A stretch of 64,000 nucleotides of DNA from an uncultured archaeon. Lineage in GTDB: Archaea; Thermoproteota; Nitrososphaeria_A; Caldarchaeales; Calditenuaceae. Numbering within the stretch: position 1 is the stretch's first letter; every line of letters begins with the position of its first letter. A model generated the notes under the pieces. It saw nothing but the letters and a program-made list of their open reading frames with translations, did not search any database and was not told the DNA's origin. Of this stretch, positions 9,815-44,264 are shown one piece after another. The stretch covers positions 55,384-119,383 of the forward strand of contig CAKZUF010000007.1 in the NCBI GenBank assembly GCA_937921685.1. The letters run 5' to 3'. Made by a program: the position numbers and the translations under genes.

Positions 9815-10528
9815 TCAGCCCTTCAAAGCAGACCGTCTCAAAAGCTGTATAGCAAGAGCAGGGTCAACTCCTTTGGGACATACTGCGCTGCAAGAGCCAG
9901 CGAAGTGGCATCTCCAAACTCCTTCAAACCTGTCCACAAGTCGTACCCTCTCCTCACCACCCTCGTCCCTGCTGTCGGCATAATACCTGTATGCTTTCAT
10001 GAGTGGTTGCGGCCCGTAGAAATCGGGAAACGTGGAGACGACGGGGCAGGCTGAGTAGCAGAGTCCACATTGGATACAGTATGTGAATTGGAGGTATCTC
10101 TCCAGTTCCTCCTCACTCTGGAGATATTGTTTCGTCGGATTTTCTTGCTCTACGTTATCCTGTCTGATAAGCCAAGTCATTAATGCCTTCTGCTTTCTGA
10201 ATAGAGGTGTCATGTCAGTTACAAGGTCTTTTACAAGGGGATAGTTGCGCATGGGCTCAACCCTTATCACTCTTCGCTTGAGCTCTAGAACCTGTGTATG
10301 ACAAGCTAGCGTCTCCAAACTGTTGACTCTAACGCCGCACGAACCGCATATCGCCATCCTGCAAGAATATCTTACAGAAAGCGTTGGATCTATGTTCTCC
10401 TTTATATAGATAAGACCGTCAAGGATCGTCATACCTTTCTTGACAGGGACCTCATACTCCTTGTAAAAGCCCTTTCCCCCATCCTCGGGCCGATATCTAA
10501 ACACCTTAAACTTGACCTTCTCCACCAA
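9815..10528 (-). CDS. sdhB: succinate dehydrogenase / fumarate reductase iron-sulfur subunit
   Basis: CRMAICGSCG 2Fe-2S motif and C-terminal 4Fe/3Fe cysteine clusters (CIQCGLCYSACP, CHFAGSCSAVCPKGV). Confidence 0.85.
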   Translation of the reverse strand: MVEKVKFKVFRYRPEDGGKGFYKEYEVPVKKGMTILDGLIYIKENIDPTLSVRYSCRMAICGSCGVRVNSLETLACHTQVLELKRRVIRVEPMRNYPLVKDLVTDMTPLFRKQKALMTWLIRQDNVEQENPTKQYLQSEEELERYLQFTYCIQCGLCYSACPVVSTFPDFYGPQPLMKAYRYYADSRDEGGEERVRLVDRFEGVWRCHFAGSCSAVCPKGVDPALAIQLLRRSALKG

Positions 10529-17426: not shown

Positions 17427-20060
17427 ATGATATATACGGCGATGCACCGTGGCCTAGGCAGTCAGATGGGATACTGGGGCGCCGGCACTCTGATAGTCCT
17501 TCTTCTATACACCATAATATGGGCAGGGCTGTCCTTCCCCAACATTGAGACCTACCGAATCCAGTACGACGGGGTTGGCGACAGCGCACTGCAAGGATTC
17601 GAGTTATCTATTGAGGAGAGCATCGAGATTATTGGGGGTTGGAGCAAGTCTACCCTAACAGTCCTCATTGTACCAAGCGTAGACGAACGTCTAACGAGTT
17701 GGGCCGGCAGGGCTGTCGACTGGTGGAGGAGAGCTAAAGAGACCTTCACGGCACTTTACGGCTACGAATATTTAAACAGGCTCGAGTTTGTGAAGCTTGT
17801 CCGAGGCATAAACGGCACGTCGGGTGACATCGTCGTAGAATATGTGGAAAGCCTAGGAGAGCGGATATGCGGGCAAACCTATATCATCGCACAAAATGGA
17901 GAGATTAGATACGCATCAGTTCAACTATCGCTAGAATGTATCAGAGGCCGGGAAGAGTATGCACTGGTAGTTGCAATGCATGAGCTTGGCCATGCGCTGG
18001 GGATAGGGCATACTACCAACTCTAGAGACTTGATGTATGCATACCTGGTCCCTGGCTCCAGGCCCTCCACGCTAAATCTCTACGCCTTAGCAGTGATCTA
18101 CGCATGGCTTGATCGGGGAATTTTCAAAAGCCCCCCAAACACGGTGACCCTGCCGTCGGGCATGGATTATATCCAGATTCTGGACGTGAACGGAGAGCCC
18201 GTCAAATTCAGGATAAGAATTTACCTGCTACTTAGAGATAAAGAACTCCTCTACAGGACAATATTCGTACCTGCCGGCCAGAGCTTCACCATAAACGTCA
18301 ACACGATGATCCAAGACGCGGACGACGCCTGGGCGAGGTACGTCTTCACCGGTTGGAGGATTAGAGGGTCAGATCAAACACTATATACAAGCACTTCTAT
18401 AACTCTCAAGCCAACCGGTCACGCAGACTATATCGCCGTCTATGATGTAGAATACAGGCTTGTCGTTGAATATCCCAACGGAACCATTCTCGACGACTGG
18501 ATAAGAAGGGGTAGTAGGGTATCAGTTAACGCAACAGAATTGATCTATCTATCTGTTGATGAGAGGCTGGTCTTTGTCGGGTGGAGTGGCGCGATAAACA
18601 GCACCAGCATTAGGCTTGAGCTTATCGTGGAGTCGCCTATTTACCTGTACGCGGTTTATAGAAGGGAATTCCTGGTCGAGGTTGCATCCGACTTTGGAGA
18701 GCCCTCAGTCTCAGGCTGGTGGCCGGAGGGAACGCTCCTCAACATAACCATCAACCCCAGCATCGTATACCTCTCCGAAGATGCTAGAATTGTGCTCAAT
18801 GGATTCAACGGCTCCCATTCAGCTTCAACACCTTACCTGTTGATCAACCTGACAGAGCCCGTACACCTCTCTGCGGTCTGGAAAGCGCAGTATCTTGTGA
18901 CGATCAGGAGCCTGGGAGGGGAGCTACACGAACACATATGGGCTGACAACGCGTCCAGAATAACAGTCACCGTGCCCAGAGAGATCCTCTGGGATAATAG
19001 GTCAAAGGCTGTCTTCACGCGATGGCTAAACCCAGATCTGTCCTCAGAGCCCACGCAGAGTCTGACAGTTACCGGTCCTAGATTCTTAGCCCCGTTGTAT
19101 GAGAGGTATTATTTCGTAGAAGTTGTTTCCACTGTGAAGGTCGACGCGCCGACTAACTGGTATAGGCGTGGGGAGGTCTTTGAGCTAGTGGTCCCCAGCT
19201 CGGTTGAGCTGGATGAAGGGTTGAGGGCCGTATTACTCGGAACCTCCGAAGGGGCTGAGGATACACTAAGGTTTGTAGTCCAGTTGCCAAAGACCATAAT
19301 ACTGTATTGGAGAGAGGAGGCGCGGATAACGATTAAGAATCCGACGATAGGGGTGGATAAAATAATCTGGGCCCCAATAAACCAAGTCATCTATCTGGAC
19401 ACACCTTCCATAATACATGTTAGCTCGGGGGAGGCGTATGAGTTCGTCAAATGGGCCGGCGGGGTCGAGTCCAGAGAAAGGACAATTTCGATCACGGTTA
19501 ATGGAAGCATCGAGCTCAGACCCGAGTATAGGAGAGTATATCGCGTCGCGTTTAACACCATACCTTCACTCAATGTCGAGTTATTGCTTCAAGAGACGTC
19601 GGGCAGGCTCTACAGGGTGCGGAGTGGTGAGTCGGCCTGGCTGCCGGAGGGGCGCTTAGTAATTCTGGGGGTGTACTGGGAGGGGCTCGAGGTTAAGAAT
19701 GCTTCCAAAGTATATGTAAACGGATCGGGCGCCTACCAAGTTAAACTAGCCGTGAGAAGCTTAGACGTTGAGGTCCTAGACATGCTCGGATTACCCGCAC
19801 CCTTCTACGAAGTCCAAGCCCTCCGCTCGGATGCCGTTATAGAATCCCGCGCCATTTCAGATTCTGCTGGACTGGCTAGGCTAAGTGCCGTCAGCTCATC
19901 GATAAGCGAGGTAGGGGCTAGATGGATGGTTTTTGAGACCTTCGCGAAGCCGGAGCCGCAGAGAGTACAGGTCAGGGTTCCAGTAAGCTTCTATACCCTT
20001 CTCCTAGCATCCACAATATTGATCGCCACATCTGCGATACAGGCTTATAGGCGGTTCTAG
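17427..20060 (+). CDS. membrane-anchored matrixin-like (metzincin) zinc metalloprotease with repeated beta-rich domains
   Basis: N-terminal TM/signal-like segment. [11 protein letters not shown](x7)LMY is an HExxHxxGxxH zinc site plus Met-turn. At least five repeats with an F-x-GW...Y-x-x-x-Y-R pattern. C-terminal TM helix ([17 protein letters not shown]) followed by a short basic tail. Confidence 0.6.
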
Positions 20061-20588: not shown

Positions 20589-20709
20589 TCCCGGCGGCAG
20601 GATTTGAACCTGCGGCCCTCCGGTTTCTGTTAGCCCGGTAGGCTGGCAAAGGCGCGGCTGGATGCCGGCCTCTACAGCCGGATGCTCTACCAGGCTGAGC
20701 TACGCCGGG
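20589..20709 (-). tRNA. tRNA-Tyr (anticodon GTA) with an intron of about 47 nt after position 37
   Basis: Hand-folded on the minus strand. Acceptor CCCGGCG/CGCCGGG gives the C1:G72 archaeal tRNA-Tyr identity pair. D arm GCTC/GAGC. Anticodon stem TCCGG/CCGGA with loop CTGTAG^A. T arm GCAGG-TTCAAAT-CCTGC. Discriminator A. CCA is not encoded. Confidence 0.75.
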
Positions 20710-36654: not shown

Positions 36655-36676
36655 GACAATGTGAAATTATCGGGCT

Positions 36677-37330
36677 TCAGTATATTAATGATGCTTTGCC
36701 GCGCTCACGGATAGCCTCGTACTGGAGCAGCGCCTCCAGTGCCAGTTTCTTGAGGGCGGCCTTCAAGTATCTGTACACGGTAGATTTTGAGAGGCCGAGC
36801 TCGGCTGCGACTTCTGAGAGGGTACACTCCCTCGGGGTGTTGAAGTACCCCATCTTCATGGCTGTGACAAGTACTAGATACTGCTTCTGCGTAATTACCC
36901 TTGGAAGTGTGAGGTTCGACTCCTCCACCACCTCAACATCTTTCCCTGCCGCAGACAGCCTCTCCACAATCCTCTTAGAAACCCTTGGGCTTGGAGTTAT
37001 CAGATTAAAGATTATTCCGGTCCTAGGTATGTAGATGGCCTGCCTCGGTATGCATGGCGACCTAGAGATTACTTTACAGGCTGAGCAGCTGGGCGACTCG
37101 ATAAGCAAGAGTCCACCTGAGAGGCGATATACCGAGGAGCCCGGGGCCTTTAAATTCCGTCTCTTCACACCTCTATCACTCCGGGTTAGCTGGATAAGAT
37201 GGGTGGAGGAGGTCTCTCCGCATTTCAGTTGCTTAAAAACACCCTCAATCAAACCCATCTCGAGAAGGCGGCAAACCTTACAGTCGGTATTACGAACGAG
37301 GATTAGGGTGCGAAAGGGGTAGCTGGTCAT
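36677..37330 (-). CDS. Cys-rich sensor domain plus HTH_10 (bacterio-opsin activator type) transcriptional regulator, NarO-like
   Basis: N-terminal cysteines CKVCRLL, KCGE and SPSCSACKVISRSPC. C-terminal LTLPRVITQKQYLVLVTAMKMGYFNTPRECTLSEVAAELGLSKSTVYRYLKAALKKL is a classic HTH_10. Confidence 0.55.
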   Translation of the reverse strand: MTSYPFRTLILVRNTDCKVCRLLEMGLIEGVFKQLKCGETSSTHLIQLTRSDRGVKRRNLKAPGSSVYRLSGGLLLIESPSCSACKVISRSPCIPRQAIYIPRTGIIFNLITPSPRVSKRIVERLSAAGKDVEVVEESNLTLPRVITQKQYLVLVTAMKMGYFNTPRECTLSEVAAELGLSKSTVYRYLKAALKKLALEALLQYEAIRERGKASLIY

Positions 37331-37505
37331 CTGGACCCCTTATAAGGAGTGAGGTATTTAATCCTCCCCCCATCGACAAGTTTTTGAGGTAGACCGCTCT
37401 ATAAAGTTCTACGCAAATGCATGTAAAAATATGCAAAAAACTCGGCGAAAGAGGAATCAGTGTTGCATATTGCGGTTAATGCTTTCTCAGCTATATTATT
37501 ATGCG

Positions 37506-38990
37506 ATGGAAGGTTCTTGGACTAGATTCTGCAGCGTCTGCACCGTCCTATTACTCAGCTTAGCTATTCTAGCAGCGGCAGCCTATGCTCAGCAGCAAAT
37601 TGTTTACGCTGACGTTCCAGGGAATCCGCCGCCTGGTGCCACTCCTAATAAGCGATTCCTCCTAATCACGTCGGAGAATGACGTCCTTATAGATGATGGC
37701 GTTGTCTTCAGGGCTTGGACCTTTAACGGCACTGTTCCGGGCCCTCTCATCTTGGTGGAGGAGGGTGATGTGGTTGAGATAGAGATCAAGAATGAGGGCA
37801 AGTACACGCATGGCGCCTCCATACATGCTGCAAACACGCAGACATCCCTCTTCGTCGGCAGCATCCCGCCAGGAGAGTCGCGAAAGCTTGTCTTCAAGGC
37901 CGACTTCCCAGGCGTCTACATGTATCACTGCGCGCCGGGAGGCCATGGAATCCTAACCCACACACTTGCCGGGATGTATGGGATGATAGTTGTTGAGCCA
38001 AAGACGGTAAAGTATAGGCTGGAGGAAAGGCTTGGAAAAGAGCCGGACATAAAGGTCTTCCTAGTTCAACACGAGGTCTACGCTAATGGAAAAGACTTCA
38101 CAGATGGTAAGCCTATCTATGTACTGTTCAATGGAAGGGTGTTCCGATATTTGACTGAGCCGATCAAGGCACGTCCAGGAGACTACGTCAGGTTCTATTT
38201 CCTAAACGTGGGTCCGAATCTGGTGGCCAGCTTCCACGCAGTGGGCGGGATATGGGAATACGTGTACCACGGCGGCAACCCAAACAACGTTGAGGAGGGG
38301 CTGCAGACAGTTACTGTGGGGCCGACAGACTCTTATGTCGTAGAGTGGCGGGTGCCCTCCGAGGGGAACTTCCTACTGGTGACCCACGCCTTCGGGACCC
38401 AAACACTCAAGGGCGCCGCAGGCTATCTCTCAGCCAAGGTCGACAACGTGCGGGATAGCCTTATCCTGCCGCAAGGGCCGCAACCGCCCTCGCAAATCCA
38501 AGGAGCCAAGAGGGTTGTAGCCCCCTTCGAGCCGACCGGCGAGGACTTAGGGACACCAGTGATATTCTATCCCGGACAGACGATCGTGGTGAGGATTGTG
38601 GGCAACAGCTTCTACCCCAAGGTTGCACGGGTACCAGTCGGCTCGGAGGTTGTCTGGGTGAATGAAGACGTCCTGAGCATTGGGTCGGGTGAGGTCACGG
38701 GCCAGCACAACGTGGCCACAGTCTCCGGGCCTGAGACCTTCGCATCAGACTTGCTGAAAAACGCTGACAGATTCACATATACGTTCAGTAAGGAGGGAGA
38801 GTATAACTACATATGCGGCATACACCCATACATGAAGGGCTCAATAGTTGTGTACAAGGCCGCGGCAATCGCTGGCGCCGGACCTACTGTAGATCTGACA
38901 GCATTACTGGCTTTCCTCATAGGTCTGGGGGTCGTCGTATCAGTTCTCAGCCTTGGACGAGGGGGACGAGCACAATTAAGAGTTAAATGA
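37506..38990 (+). CDS. NirK-type two-domain copper oxidoreductase fused to a C-terminal cupredoxin domain and TM anchor
   Basis: Signal-like N-terminus. TFNGTVPGP. H-x4-H-A-A (THGASIHAA) and YHCAPGGHGILTHTLAGMYGMIVV, which resemble the NirK HNIDFHAA and YHCAP...H...M type-1/type-2 Cu ligand blocks. A C-terminal YICGIHPYMKGS small blue copper site. Terminal hydrophobic helix. The ORF track's upstream extension to 37431 is probably not translated. Confidence 0.55.
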   Translation: MEGSWTRFCSVCTVLLLSLAILAAAAYAQQQIVYADVPGNPPPGATPNKRFLLITSENDVLIDDGVVFRAWTFNGTVPGPLILVEEGDVVEIEIKNEGKYTHGASIHAANTQTSLFVGSIPPGESRKLVFKADFPGVYMYHCAPGGHGILTHTLAGMYGMIVVEPKTVKYRLEERLGKEPDIKVFLVQHEVYANGKDFTDGKPIYVLFNGRVFRYLTEPIKARPGDYVRFYFLNVGPNLVASFHAVGGIWEYVYHGGNPNNVEEGLQTVTVGPTDSYVVEWRVPSEGNFLLVTHAFGTQTLKGAAGYLSAKVDNVRDSLILPQGPQPPSQIQGAKRVVAPFEPTGEDLGTPVIFYPGQTIVVRIVGNSFYPKVARVPVGSEVVWVNEDVLSIGSGEVTGQHNVATVSGPETFASDLLKNADRFTYTFSKEGEYNYICGIHPYMKGSIVVYKAAAIAGAGPTVDLTALLAFLIGLGVVVSVLSLGRGGRAQLRVK

Positions 38991-39598
38991 ATATGACGCG
39001 CCTTTTTGCAGCAGTGATACTCTCGATGTTCGCAATCACTATTTTGTTTATCGCACTGTCAACAAAGCCTATTGAAGAGCCGCACAGTGGGGTTATGGTC
39101 AGTGGCAGACCCCTCCCCGACTTCACACTCATAAACCAAGATAATGAGATCTTTAGTCTAGGCAAGGTCGCTGGCAGACCTGTCATACTATTCTTCGGAT
39201 ATACAGGCTGCCCTGACGTCTGCCCCTTGGCCATGAGGAAAATCTCCGAGTCTCTGAGAAGCATGGGCCCCCTGTCGGAAGAATTCGCGGTAATCTTCAT
39301 ATCGGTTGACCCTTTGAGGGATACGCCTGACAGGCTCTCAAGGTGGGTCTCACAGTATTATCCAAGGGCTATAGCACTCACCGGTGATCTTGATGAATTG
39401 GGGAGGGTGTGGAGGGCCTATGGTGCCGCGAGGCTTGAGGACTACGAGTCGGCCGTAAGGAGCGGTGACACATACTACGTCAGTCACAGCGCGGTTATCT
39501 ATGTGGCGGACCGTAACCACGTACTCCGACACATCTTGACTCCCGAAATGGATACGGAGGCTTTCAGACAGGTCCTAGAAGAGGTCTATAGGTCCTAG
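38987..39598 (+). CDS. SCO1/SenC copper chaperone (thioredoxin fold)
   Basis: N-terminal TM, then FGYTGCPDVCP (CxxxCP) copper-binding motif. Confidence 0.8.
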   Translation: MNMTRLFAAVILSMFAITILFIALSTKPIEEPHSGVMVSGRPLPDFTLINQDNEIFSLGKVAGRPVILFFGYTGCPDVCPLAMRKISESLRSMGPLSEEFAVIFISVDPLRDTPDRLSRWVSQYYPRAIALTGDLDELGRVWRAYGAARLEDYESAVRSGDTYYVSHSAVIYVADRNHVLRHILTPEMDTEAFRQVLEEVYRS

Positions 39599-39655
39599 CA
39601 ACGACTAGATGGAATCGGATAAGCGGGTTAAAATACTGACACTTAGTGGTCTCTA

Positions 39656-41557
39656 ATGATGCTTGAGGCGTGGCTAATCTGGTTGCTACCGATTACCGCC
39701 GCCTTCCTCATTCCCGGCCTTGTTAAGATATCGAGGAGGGCGGGGGAGGCTTTCTCAGTGCTGGTAGTGGCCACCTCAGCGGCTCTAACTATCTCATTAT
39801 TGCCGAAAGTCTGGGGAGGAAAGAGTGTGCAGACAGATATTGCATGGATAGGCCTACCAGGGGGCGGCTCCGTCCGCCTTGGGATGCTCCTAGACCCGCT
39901 CTCAGTCATCATGACCCTCATTGCCACGGGAATAGGAACCCTCATAATGCTATACTCGATAGGCTACATGCACCATGAGGAAGGGGTCGGCCGATACTAT
40001 TTCTTCATGACACTCTTCATAGGCGGCATGGTGCTTCTAGTCACCTCGTCAAACCTGCTCTGCCTATACATTGGATGGGAGATTGTCGGAATTTGTAGCT
40101 ACGCCCTTATCGGATACTATGTTCACAGGAAGGAGGCTAGGGAGGCGGCTATCAAAGCCTTCGTAACAACTAGGATCGGCGATGTACTGCTTTTCGCCTC
40201 CATTCTCATCACATTTGCCGTTTTTAACACATTAGAATTCACTGAACTCAGACTAGCTATTGAGGAGAGGGCTGCGGCCGGACATCTTGACATGGGGTTC
40301 TTAATGCTAATCCTCCTACTAGCCTTCGGGGGAGCCATAGGAAAGTCTGCACAGTTCCCACTCCACGTCTGGCTCCCAGACGCTATGGAAGGGCCCACAC
40401 CCGTCTCCGCGCTAATACATGCAGCCACTATGGTGAAGGCGGGTGTCTACCTAGTTGCGAGATACAGCTTTACAATAGTTCCTTTCGAGCATTTCACCCC
40501 GGCACAGCTCTCAGACTGGTATACCATGATAGCGACGATAGGCGGTTTCACGGCCCTCTTCGCGGCGAGCATGGGGCTCGTCTCCAACGATATTAAGCGC
40601 GTTATAGCCTACTCGACGATCAGCCAGCTGGCCCTTATGTTTGCTGCACTTGGGGTTGGGACGGCTGCGGGGTGGTTCGGGGGTGTTTTCCACATAGTCA
40701 GCCACTCCATCTTCAAGGCTCTCCTCTTCCTCGCATCCGGAGTCGTAATACACTATCTGGGGACAAACAATATCGATGAAATGGGTGGGCTGAGAAGGGT
40801 TATGCCCATTACATTCTACACCTCTACAATTGGCGTGTTAGCTCTCTCAGGCATCCCGCCTTTCAACGGCTTCTTCAGCAAGGATATCATACTCGGGGCA
40901 CTTCTGGAGAGGGGGGCTTGGATTCCACTCCTGCTTGTGGCCTCGGCTTCAATCCTAACTGTGATCTATAGCTTTAGGTGGCTGAGCAAGGTCTTCCTAG
41001 GGGAGATGAAGCACCATGGAGGGCAACACGGCCACGCCGAGTCATTTAGGACTATGACAACCCCACTGATAATTCTAGCGGCACTCACCCTAACGGGTCT
41101 ACCACCATTTGAGGAAGCCCTACACCACTTTATTGGAATCCACGAGGAAATCAAAATACCCCCAGCAACCTACGCAATCTCAGCAGGAGTGATTGCAACA
41201 GGTCTCACCATTGCTTACCTATTCTACATAAGACGCGCTTGGAGTCCAGAGGCTGTACGCCAAGCCCCCCTATTGTCTGCAATACACTCAGTCCTAGTAA
41301 ATAGATACTACATAGACGTGGCGTACAAGATAATCTTCGTGGACGGGTTTACAAGGCTTGCAGCACTGATAAGAAGGGGGTTAGAGGAAAAGGTGATAGA
41401 CGGTATAAACTATGCAGCAGCAAGGGGCTTCCAGAAGATAGTGGATGTGATCAGATACATCCAGACGGGAAGCAGCAACCTCAACATTAGTGGTGTAGCT
41501 ATAGGTTTAGTAATTCTGCTGTTTGTTCTCTTAGTGAGGCTTGCCGGCATCCTCTAA
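39656..41557 (+). CDS. proton-conducting membrane transporter, NuoL/MrpA (complex I subunit 5) family, stand-alone
   Basis: Sixteen or more TM helices with the conserved WLPDAMEGPTPVSALIHAATMVKAGVY and ISQLALMF blocks. Confidence 0.8.
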   Translation: MMLEAWLIWLLPITAAFLIPGLVKISRRAGEAFSVLVVATSAALTISLLPKVWGGKSVQTDIAWIGLPGGGSVRLGMLLDPLSVIMTLIATGIGTLIMLYSIGYMHHEEGVGRYYFFMTLFIGGMVLLVTSSNLLCLYIGWEIVGICSYALIGYYVHRKEAREAAIKAFVTTRIGDVLLFASILITFAVFNTLEFTELRLAIEERAAAGHLDMGFLMLILLLAFGGAIGKSAQFPLHVWLPDAMEGPTPVSALIHAATMVKAGVYLVARYSFTIVPFEHFTPAQLSDWYTMIATIGGFTALFAASMGLVSNDIKRVIAYSTISQLALMFAALGVGTAAGWFGGVFHIVSHSIFKALLFLASGVVIHYLGTNNIDEMGGLRRVMPITFYTSTIGVLALSGIPPFNGFFSKDIILGALLERGAWIPLLLVASASILTVIYSFRWLSKVFLGEMKHHGGQHGHAESFRTMTTPLIILAALTLTGLPPFEEALHHFIGIHEEIKIPPATYAISAGVIATGLTIAYLFYIRRAWSPEAVRQAPLLSAIHSVLVNRYYIDVAYKIIFVDGFTRLAALIRRGLEEKVIDGINYAAARGFQKIVDVIRYIQTGSSNLNISGVAIGLVILLFVLLVRLAGIL

Positions 41558-43505: not shown

Positions 43506-44264
43506 CTATATCTCCAGCAGCAACTCAGGATCCTTTAGTGTCTTGATCTTGTCCTCCTCGCCCTCAATTAGCCAGCTCATCCAGCAGAGCTCCGTGGGCC
43601 GGAAACCGATCTTCTCACAAATCTCGGTGACGCCCTTGATGAACTCCATATCCTTCTCAAATGGTTTAAGGCCTGAACCCGCTAGTAGCCTGTTTACCAC
43701 CCTCTTCACCACCCTATCAGGCATCAAAGTGTCGACCCCGCCCATCATCCTGAGATACTGGTACGTAACGAGCCCAACCCCGTTTATGGAGCCTATAGGG
43801 TCGCGCCTCCAATTATGAAGGCTTGATTGGGATGCCCAGATTCTCAGGGCCTCTCTATCACCCCGTCCATATCTGGTCAGAGCCGCGGCGATGTCCTTGG
43901 CGGCTTGCCAGGACCGCGTATTCCTCCAAAGATATCTAACCCTCCTAATGTCTAGGCGAGCGAGATCTCGTAGATGTTTAACTTCTCCCTTTTCCACGAA
44001 TCTCTTCGAAAAGAACTTCACTCGCGGAACCACTACATCGAAGTAGCTTAGACCACTTGAGGTCAAGGCGGCGTCAACGACCATGAGGACAACGCTCCCA
44101 CCCCATCGCTCTGTCCTAAGACACCTATCACACACTTGTTTAAGATTTGGGAGGCTGGATGTGATCCTCAAAATCTTCTCTCTCAGCAGGTCTAGGCTGC
44201 CCAATCCATACCTTGACGGGGGCTGGATGGAATTTAAATAGTTGGCTAAATTAGCATTATTCAA
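43506..44264 (-). CDS. hypothetical protein with an HhH-GPD-like segment, possibly an archaeal DNA N-glycosylase (AGOG-like)
   Basis: INGVGLVTYQYLRMMGGVDTLMPDRVVKRV resembles the helix-hairpin-helix/GPD pattern L..GVG..TA......G.......D.HV.RV. Its size (252 aa) is similar to Pa-AGOG. Weak. Confidence 0.35.
   Translation of the reverse strand: MNNANLANYLNSIQPPSRYGLGSLDLLREKILRITSSLPNLKQVCDRCLRTERWGGSVVLMVVDAALTSSGLSYFDVVVPRVKFFSKRFVEKGEVKHLRDLARLDIRRVRYLWRNTRSWQAAKDIAAALTRYGRGDREALRIWASQSSLHNWRRDPIGSINGVGLVTYQYLRMMGGVDTLMPDRVVKRVVNRLLAGSGLKPFEKDMEFIKGVTEICEKIGFRPTELCWMSWLIEGEEDKIKTLKDPELLLEI

Follow-up and report, generated by a model that had tools for sequence, protein, structure and literature searches.

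The stretch of archaeal DNA analysed here (64 kb, called the window below) contains a gene for a copper-containing nitrite reductase (nirK), which lies between a divergently transcribed gene for a NarO-like regulator and a gene for a membrane-anchored Sco1 protein (sco1). The complex I gene nuoL follows sco1 on the same strand. The region 36677-39598, which comprises the regulator, nirK and sco1, is very probably a self-contained, dispensable three-gene cassette for nitrite reduction, of which nuoL is only a neighbour. The four open reading frames (ORFs) were found where the first-pass annotation of this DNA had placed them and carry the domains named there, as confirmed by the ORF list and by Pfam. 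The features of the locus are listed below; residue numbers of NirK refer to the form of 494 residues unless the ORF of 519 residues is named.

36677-37330, minus strand: NarO-like regulator, 217 residues (Pfam HTH_10 and profile homology to NarO)
37331-37505, no strand: divergent promoter/operator region, 175 bp, read from the sequence, with a putative operator role
37506-38990, plus strand: nirK, TsNirK-type class III, 494 residues (Pfam, match in the Protein Data Bank (PDB), ligand mapping, AlphaFold2 (AF2) model)
38868-38987, plus strand: archaea-specific C-terminal extension of NirK (alignment A1, hydropathy, AF2 helix at residues 464-486)
38987-39598, plus strand: sco1, membrane-anchored Sco1/SenC protein (SCO1-SenC domain, match to PDB entry 4wbj)
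39656-41557, plus strand: nuoL, 633 residues, a neighbour outside the cassette (TIGR01974, full-length PDB matches)

The closest proteins are found in metagenome-assembled genomes (MAGs) of Aigarchaeota/Caldarchaeales. That of Candidatus Calditenuaceae archaeon HR02, whose annotation reads copper-containing nitrite reductase, is 89% identical. The source organism is a hot-spring archaeon of the Aigarchaeota/Caldarchaeales and not a classical crenarchaeon, although a "thermophilic crenarchaeon" was first named as host. The occurrence of nirK in MAGs of this lineage has been reported previously (PMC5877337, PMC10547907). The "undefined function" first assigned to the locus can be replaced by a well-supported reading, the reduction of nitrite to nitric oxide (NO). 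The loci compared with the window were labelled from L001 onward, L002 being HR02 and L011 being the Caldarchaeum-type MAG GCA_041641305.1.

Presence, probable loss and coupling of the cassette genes

The limits of the cassette were indicated by comparison with locus L009. In this locus, window positions 36697-39656 (2.96 kb, containing the regulator, nirK and sco1) are replaced by about 94 bp, and the flanks are collinear by blastn. The gene order shared by the two loci runs from SufBD to the metallophosphoesterase gene on one side, and from nuoL to SecE-Spt5-L11-L1-L10-AlaRS on the other. Identity to the window over eight or nine marker proteins decreases in the order L002, L009, L008. Because the more distant L008 carries the cassette at the same site while L009 is closer to the window, the simplest history is one in which the three genes would have been lost as a unit in L009, with nuoL untouched. 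A search around the cassette for flanking repeats or signs of mobile elements gave only short repeats at chance level, and the GC content is unremarkable.

Only 22 bp separate the regulator stop (36677) and the start (36654) of the metallophosphoesterase gene, which is on the same strand. The sequence GTATATTAAT in the last codons of the regulator (window 36655-36700) is conserved in L009, which has no regulator, and is probably the TATA region of the metallophosphoesterase gene. A deletion scar was also considered for the 20 bp that the 3' end of the regulator has in common with L009, and this candidate was rejected in favour of the simpler explanation by the same TATA region.

The sco1 gene is joined to nirK by an overlap of its ATG with the nirK stop (ATGA). 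It encodes a protein with a SCO1-SenC domain (PF02630, E = 2.1e-32), an N-terminal membrane anchor, the motif CPDVCP (C75 and C79) and a distal histidine (H167). ScoI of B. japonicum (4wbj) is the best PDB match (E = 2.7e-25), and C75, C79 and H167 align with the ScoI ligands. The nirK-sco1 pair was found in five archaeal contexts (the window and L001; L002; L003 and L004; L005-L007; and L008), which were counted as independent, with other neighbours differing. Sco identity across them is 42-81%, and the stop and start codons overlap or nearly do so. The pairing of Sco1 with nirK proposed in the first-pass annotation was thus borne out. Because of this conserved coupling, a role of Sco1 in NirK maturation, either in copper loading or in cysteine reduction, is the best inference.

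It has also to be considered whether Sco1 serves the assembly of the CuA site of cytochrome oxidase, or general thiol redox on the periplasmic side, its place after nirK being historical. Sco proteins are known above all for their part in CuA assembly, B. japonicum ScoI, the nearest homologue with a solved structure, among them, and no sco gene was found at the two bacterial three-domain nirK loci examined. Such an explanation is nevertheless unlikely, since the pair persists in all five archaeal contexts at the Sco identities and codon spacing given above, and since sco1 was lost together with nirK in L009.

The copper nitrite reductase and its membrane anchor

Three starts can be proposed for nirK, namely 37431 (the longest ORF, 519 residues), 37479 (public annotation P0001) and 37506 (first-pass and HR02 annotations). 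The start at 37506 is favoured because it gives a normal signal peptide, because the TATA-like element GGTTAATG (at 37474) lies about 30 nt upstream, and because the ATG at 37431 is situated inside a repeated ATGCAA half-site.

The nirK product contains the Pfam domains Cu-oxidase_3, Cu-oxidase_2, Cupredoxin_1 and Copper-bind, the last two at residues 383-474 of the ORF of 519 residues, and matches the NCBIfam model TIGR02376 (Cu_nitrite_red) with E = 3e-50. By far the best PDB match is 6HBE (phmmer, E = 7.1e-137, query residues 68-477), laccases being far weaker, and the alignment with 6hbe extends to the end of the C-terminal cupredoxin. This entry is the crystal structure of TsNirK, the three-domain NirK of Thermus scotoductus SA-01 (Opperman et al. 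2019; PMC6400189), which has a nitrite reductase activity of 65 per second (PMC6400189). Structural comparison led to the same enzyme. The top Foldseek match of the AF2 monomer model (predicted local distance difference test (pLDDT) score 75) is 6hbe, with a template modelling (TM) score of 0.81 over 425/425 residues. The multicopper oxidase Nmar_1354 (9cck) is the third-best match, two-domain NirKs are among the next, and laccases are only weak matches, with 16-18% identity. A protein search recovered 3341 significant relatives, and the top matches listed carry the same Pfam domains.

The published TsNirK ligands map one-to-one to the window NirK, including the catalytic serine S105 (SerCAT) and the catalytic histidine H244 (HisCAT). 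The ligand blocks quoted in the first-pass annotation are real and were located as HGASIH at residue 102, YHCAP at 140 and CGIHPYM at 437. The ligands H102, C142, H152 and M157 form the type 1 copper site T1CuN, and C142 is adjacent to H141 (Cys-His bridge). The type 2 copper site (T2Cu) has the ligands H107, H141 and H294, which align with TsNirK H80, H114 and H267, and the type 1 site of the C-terminal cupredoxin (T1CuC) has the ligands H401, C437, H440 and M443. In the catalytic pocket, SerCAT S105 is part of H-G-A-S-I-H and HisCAT H244 is part of F-H-A-V. All copper ligands, S105 and H244 are invariant in 17 archaeal and bacterial homologues (alignment A1), as are V246, Q267 and T268, which are further catalytic residues of TsNirK (given here in the numbering of the 494-residue form). 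The trinuclear cluster of laccase-like oxidases is excluded because the NirK sequence contains no H-x-H motif of the laccase type and because Cys142 is followed by Ala (YHCAP) and not by His as in H-C-H. The assignment of the window NirK as a TsNirK-type three-domain nitrite reductase is well supported, and its predicted activity is that known for TsNirK.

A different identity for the enzyme, either as another multicopper oxidase with a pendant cupredoxin (of the Nmar_1354 kind) or as a two-domain laccase, appears very improbable. Nmar_1354 belongs to the same archaeal class, has the same layout and ranks high among the structural matches (PMC11761707), and the equivalog cut-off of TIGR02376 is missed. 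Identity to 9cck, however, is 23%, compared with 51-58% to TsNirK. The motifs present are H-x4-H and H-C-A, not the H-x-H and H-C-H needed for a trinuclear T2/T3 cluster, and the TsNirK catalytic residues S105, H244, V246, Q267 and T268, which belong to an enzyme with measured nitrite turnover, are all retained. The view that this is a NirK and not a laccase-like oxidase, taken in the first-pass annotation, therefore holds, with the histidine triad of the NirK type 2 copper present and 6HBE as best match.

The fused cupredoxin and the terminal transmembrane helix noted at first reading are both real, as judged by Pfam, the 6hbe alignment and hydropathy. The same fusion had been called unusual, but the TsNirK subclass had already been crystallised and assayed (PMC6400189), its relatives are numerous, and nirK is known in the lineage.

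Hydropathy indicates a hydrophobic N-terminal signal at residues 4-30 of NirK and a C-terminal transmembrane helix at about 458-487, and the anchor helix also appears in the AF2 model (residues 464-486). The C-terminal extension is composed, in order, of an Ala/Gly linker, a conserved D-[LIVM]-T, the transmembrane helix and a basic tail. It is present in 11/11 archaeal and 0/6 bacterial sequences of alignment A1. Such an anchor is an obvious means to retain an exported enzyme in an archaeon that has no outer membrane, and it would place the electron-entry cupredoxin beside the membrane.

The D-[LIVM]-T directly before the helix is kept in 11/11 archaeal three-domain NirKs, in contrast to the variable linker beside it. 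This tripeptide was considered, together with the transmembrane tail, as a general sorting signal and rejected, since such a tail is not carried by any further ORF of 20 archaeal loci. An NCBIfam scan gave no match to a model of the PGF-CTERM type.

The regulator, its spacer and the neighbouring nuoL

The regulator contains an HTH_10 domain (PF04967, E = 1.9e-18) at residues 146-197 and seven cysteines at positions 17, 20, 37, 82, 85, 93 and 169. The six cysteines C17, C20, C37, C82, C85 and C93 form an N-terminal Cys-motif domain. A word-based search recovered only eight close homologues. In a tblastn search against plasmids, the best match was a Haloferax larsenii protein (82% query coverage) encoded divergently from a nar operon, which is 68% identical to the annotated narO of Haloferax volcanii pHV3 (NC_013964.1). 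Pairwise BLASTP against H. volcanii NarO aligns the helix-turn-helix alone. In an hhalign comparison, five Aigarchaeota regulators matched six haloarchaeal NarO-family proteins, including H. volcanii narO, with a probability of 98.75% (E = 1.4e-16), and the alignment of 186 columns joins residues 14-207 to residues 14-211. In this comparison C17/C82/C85/C93 of the regulator are aligned with C17/C81/C83/C91 of NarO, the four conserved NarO cysteines being read from alignment A6. The full-length match and the four aligned cysteines support, at the level of homology, the NarO-like character proposed in the first-pass annotation.

When 1.84 billion representatives were searched with a profile, 988 relatives were detected at a threshold of E <= 1e-3 and 59 at one of E <= 1e-10. 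The full-length members, 113 in number, conserve C17 in 83/113, C82 in 106/113, C85 in 104/113 and C93 in 44/113; C20 and C37 are specific to the clade of the window regulator. An HTH_10 gene is divergent from nirK in the window, L002, L005-L007 and L008.

A layout parallel to that of the window was observed in L011 (18586-21310), where a 204-residue HTH_10 regulator is divergent from a generic two-domain multicopper oxidase of 350 residues. The oxidase gene is followed by one for a 316-residue fusion of NosL with a thioredoxin-like (DsbE/ResA-like) domain, and the group lies about 8 kb from the nuoL of L011.

The spacer between the regulator and nirK contains, besides the nirK element named above, the TATA-like element TATTTAAT at 37355 for the regulator. 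It also contains the inverted half-sites ATGCAA (37431) and TTGCAT (37463). These half-sites occur in 12 copies in the 64 kb, two of them in the 175-bp spacer (0.03 expected), which is suggestive of a candidate operator for the NarO-like regulator. Among the 29 loci of the motif search, the palindrome TGCAAC-N3-4-GTTGCA is found only in the regulator-nirK spacer of L005-L007 (two copies, 9906-9962) and L008 (one copy, 9935-9950), where it too may be a candidate operator of this regulator. A scan for sigma-70 promoters and terminators is uninformative in an archaeon. The spacer measures 921 bp in HR02 (L002:9079-10001), with a called ORF of 66 residues, versus 175 bp in the window. About 100 bp directly upstream of nirK are conserved between HR02 and the window.

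The nuoL gene encodes a protein of 633 residues with the Pfam domains Proton_antipo_N and Proton_antipo_M. It reaches 526.1 bits against the TIGR01974 (NDH_I_L) cut-off of 407.5 and covers model positions 4-628/630. The PDB matches, which are to NuoL/NdhF/Nqo12 proteins, are full length; those to NdhF1, Mycobacterium smegmatis NuoL and E. coli NuoL take in the C-terminal extension as well. In solved complex I, the C-terminal extension of NuoL is a lateral helix along NuoM/N. With the MrpA models, 300-347 bits are reached where the cut-offs are 920-1117, and the match is confined to residues 9-480 or so; the NdhF3 model scores 218 against 588.7. The product is a full-length genuine NuoL, encoded by a normal complex I gene that lies outside the cassette and has a promoter of its own.

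A BRE/TATA-like (B recognition element/TATA) sequence, AGCGGGTTAAAATA, is located at about 39622-39635, 28 nt upstream of the nuoL ATG. It is conserved in the window and in the cassette-free L009, which points to a separate nuoL transcript, probably leaderless. The gap between sco1 and nuoL is 57 bp in the window, and the gene order is the same in L002 and L008. In other neighbourhoods (L003, L005-L007), nirK-sco1 occurs without nuoL, and in L010 and L011 nuoL stands alone beside unrelated genes. Only a nuoL-nuoM pair is present in L014 and in 11 species-representative loci (L016-L026). The closest orthologue outside Caldarchaeales (49%) is from Bathyarchaeia and lies inside a nuoA-H-J-K-L-M-N operon.

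No other nuo or mrp membrane subunit was detected in the window by tblastn with nuoA/H/J/K/M/N queries, taken from Bathyarchaeia and Pelearchaeum loci, or by Pfam on about 50 ORFs, and no Mrp or DabA partner gene was found in the window or in its relatives. The first-pass annotation was correct in noting this absence, but the stand-alone position it considered remarkable is normal in Caldarchaeales, where nuoL is solitary or paired with nuoM. The remaining complex I subunits are presumably encoded elsewhere in the genome of the window organism. Across Caldarchaeales, complex I genes were observed to be fragmented into small units interleaved with unrelated genes; in L020 (4334-5149), for example, nuoJ1-J2-K form a separate unit 3 kb away. 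A genome scan with a nuoM alignment found 11 Caldarchaeales loci, none from the family of the window.

The first-pass proposal to unite all four genes in a single copper-dependent module, concerned with membrane energy or N-oxides and possibly linking the turnover of NirK to a proton channel of orphan, antiporter-like type, can draw on the shared strand, the short sco1-nuoL gap, the order kept in L002 and L008 and the lack of other nuo or mrp genes within 64 kb, but it is most improbable and is refuted by L009, which keeps the synteny and nuoL without the other three genes, besides being opposed by nirK-sco1 without nuoL in L003 and L005-L007, by nuoL orthologues solitary or nuoM-paired beside unrelated genes in 13 other Caldarchaeales loci, by a TATA-like element kept with and without the cassette, by an end-to-end NuoL match whose C-terminal extension is meaningful only next to NuoM/N, and by MrpA and NdhF3 scores far under their cut-offs.

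The rest of the window consists of housekeeping genes, including those for eRF1, SdhB/C, ribosomal proteins, SufBD, SMC/ScpB, TopoVI-B, SecE-Spt5-L11-L1-L10, AlaRS, V-ATPase and CTP synthase. Three further features were observed. A conserved gene at 43506-44264 (minus strand), with no Pfam match and a product of 232-252 residues, lies between the L1 and L10 genes and also occurs in L002, L008 and L009. An ORF of 877 residues at 17427-20060 (plus strand), among ribosomal protein genes, has as its sole Pfam match a short matrixin (Peptidase_M10) zinc site at residues 178-208. A tRNA of 121 nt at 20589-20709 (minus strand), recognised by Rfam (57.5 bits) and not reported by ARAGORN, is probably an intron-containing archaeal tRNA.

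Proposed function and comparison with known systems

On the domain identities, ligand conservation, fold, synteny and presence/absence pattern established above, a mechanism with a putative electron path, trimer, Sco1 client, regulator signal and operator can be proposed. The NarO-like regulator would control the divergent nirK-sco1 operon. A metal centre sensitive to redox state or NO is probably bound by its Cys motif, and its HTH_10 domain probably binds the 175-bp spacer, so that nirK-sco1 would be switched on at low oxygen or with N-oxides. The Sec-type signal would direct NirK to export, after which the C-terminal helix, situated immediately behind the cupredoxin, would keep it at the outside of the cytoplasmic membrane. 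By analogy with the TsNirK structure, electrons would enter at T1CuC, pass to T1CuN and then reach T2Cu through the Cys142-His141 bridge. The T2Cu site would be completed by H294 of the neighbouring subunit in a trimer, and nitrite would be converted there to NO with SerCAT S105 and HisCAT H244. The co-translated Sco1, on the same side of the membrane, may deliver Cu(I), keep the copper-ligand cysteines reduced during NirK maturation, or both.

Several observations weigh against parts of this reading. The canonical client of Sco1 is the CuA site of haem-copper oxidases, and no demonstration of a Sco role in NirK maturation was found in the literature checked. The NirK score for TIGR02376, a model built on classical two-domain NirKs, does not reach the equivalog cut-off (171.4 versus 296.3 bits), so the NirK assignment rests on the TsNirK subclass. 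The AF2 model of the regulator is poor (pLDDT 62.6), and L003 contains nirK-sco1 without a regulator. Some close homologues of the regulator have lost C93, and of the six N-terminal cysteines C17, C82 and C85 alone are retained in the Caldarchaeum-type protein (L005), so that the sensing chemistry may vary. The half-sites of the window are spaced, and the tight palindrome TGCAAC-N2-6-GTTGCA is absent from it. An NO reductase was not seen in the window, and nor is missing from the nirK-bearing Caldarchaeales MAGs that have been published (PMC10547907); both respiration and nitrite detoxification are therefore possible. HR02 has nosZ (PMC5877337).

The families of all the parts are known already, and nirK has been annotated and published in the Caldarchaeales lineage. 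Small novelties are the tethering of the TsNirK class to the membrane in archaea, the strict coupling of nirK and sco1, the NarO homologue beside nirK outside haloarchaea, and the clean presence/absence polymorphism of three genes. What lies beside nuoL is a standard nitrite reductase cassette, and the locus as a whole is no exotic energy module of four genes that would include an orphan proton channel. The crystallised TsNirK class is extended to thermophilic archaea, in a membrane-tethered form with the classical Met axial ligand. Since nirK and sco1 are so strictly paired, organisms without a periplasm may possess a specific route by which NirK is loaded with copper. The clean presence or absence of the cassette between close relatives helps in reading the patchy nirK calls in Caldarchaeales MAGs. 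To our knowledge, almost nothing is known about the regulation of denitrification genes in non-halophilic archaea, and the NarO homologue beside nirK is a testable candidate for such control. A wider proposal is possible but rather doubtful, namely that NarO-type Cys-motif HTH_10 proteins are no haloarchaeal speciality but old pan-archaeal redox/NO sensors that control N-oxide and copper-enzyme genes, one of which would accompany nirK and a dedicated Sco1 in thermophilic Nitrososphaeria, in a three-gene cassette that is gained or lost. If this were true, the window Sco1 would be the first Sco-type chaperone devoted to nitrite reductase maturation.

The regulator is comparable to NarO of H. volcanii, which is reportedly a transcription activator of denitrification genes. 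The two proteins are similar in size (211 residues in NarO, 217 in the window), in the N-terminal Cys-motif domain and C-terminal HTH_10, in profile homology over their full length, and in a gene placement divergent from an N-oxide reductase operon. They differ in sequence (about 25-29% identity), in the motif C-x2-C of the regulator versus C-x-C of NarO, and in the two extra clade-specific cysteines C20 and C37. The window regulator adjoins nirK and not nar, and its host belongs to thermophilic Nitrososphaeria and is not a haloarchaeon.

Sco1 shares with B. japonicum ScoI (4WBJ) the thioredoxin-like fold family, an identical CPDVCP, the distal His and the N-terminal anchor. It differs from Sco1/SenC proteins in that its gene overlaps nirK and is not placed with cytochrome oxidase genes; synteny suggests NirK as its client. 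The nuoL product resembles NuoL/Nqo12/NdhF of complex I over its full length, including the C-terminal extension, and scores above the TIGR01974 cut-off, but its gene is apart from other nuo genes, which is the rule in Caldarchaeales.

Nmar_1354 (MCO4 of N. maritimus, 9CCK), from the same archaeal class, also has a pendant C-terminal T1 cupredoxin and a two-cupredoxin core. It contains a T2/T3 trinuclear cluster, whereas the window NirK has mononuclear T2 ligands and only 23% identity to it. Nmar_1354 oxidises hydroxylamine to HNO with O2 (PMC11761707).

The closest known system is TsNirK, which has the same domain order, a NirK core followed by an amicyanin-like C-terminal cupredoxin, with 51-58% identity over about 410 residues. 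Both proteins have the T2Cu His triad, the Cys-His bridge, Ser replacing the catalytic Asp, HisCAT, and the His2-Cys-Met set of T1CuC. The axial ligand of T1CuN is Met in the window NirK (M157), as in classical NirKs, whereas it is Gln in TsNirK; in alignment A1 the axial Gln is confined to Truepera and Spirochaeta sequences. The archaeal protein adds a linker and transmembrane anchor of about 45 residues, which none of the bacterial members examined has. The two bacterial three-domain nirK loci examined contain genes for a cupredoxin and for CsoR-like, Rrf2 and Crp proteins, whereas in archaea sco1 comes after nirK and an HTH_10 gene before it.

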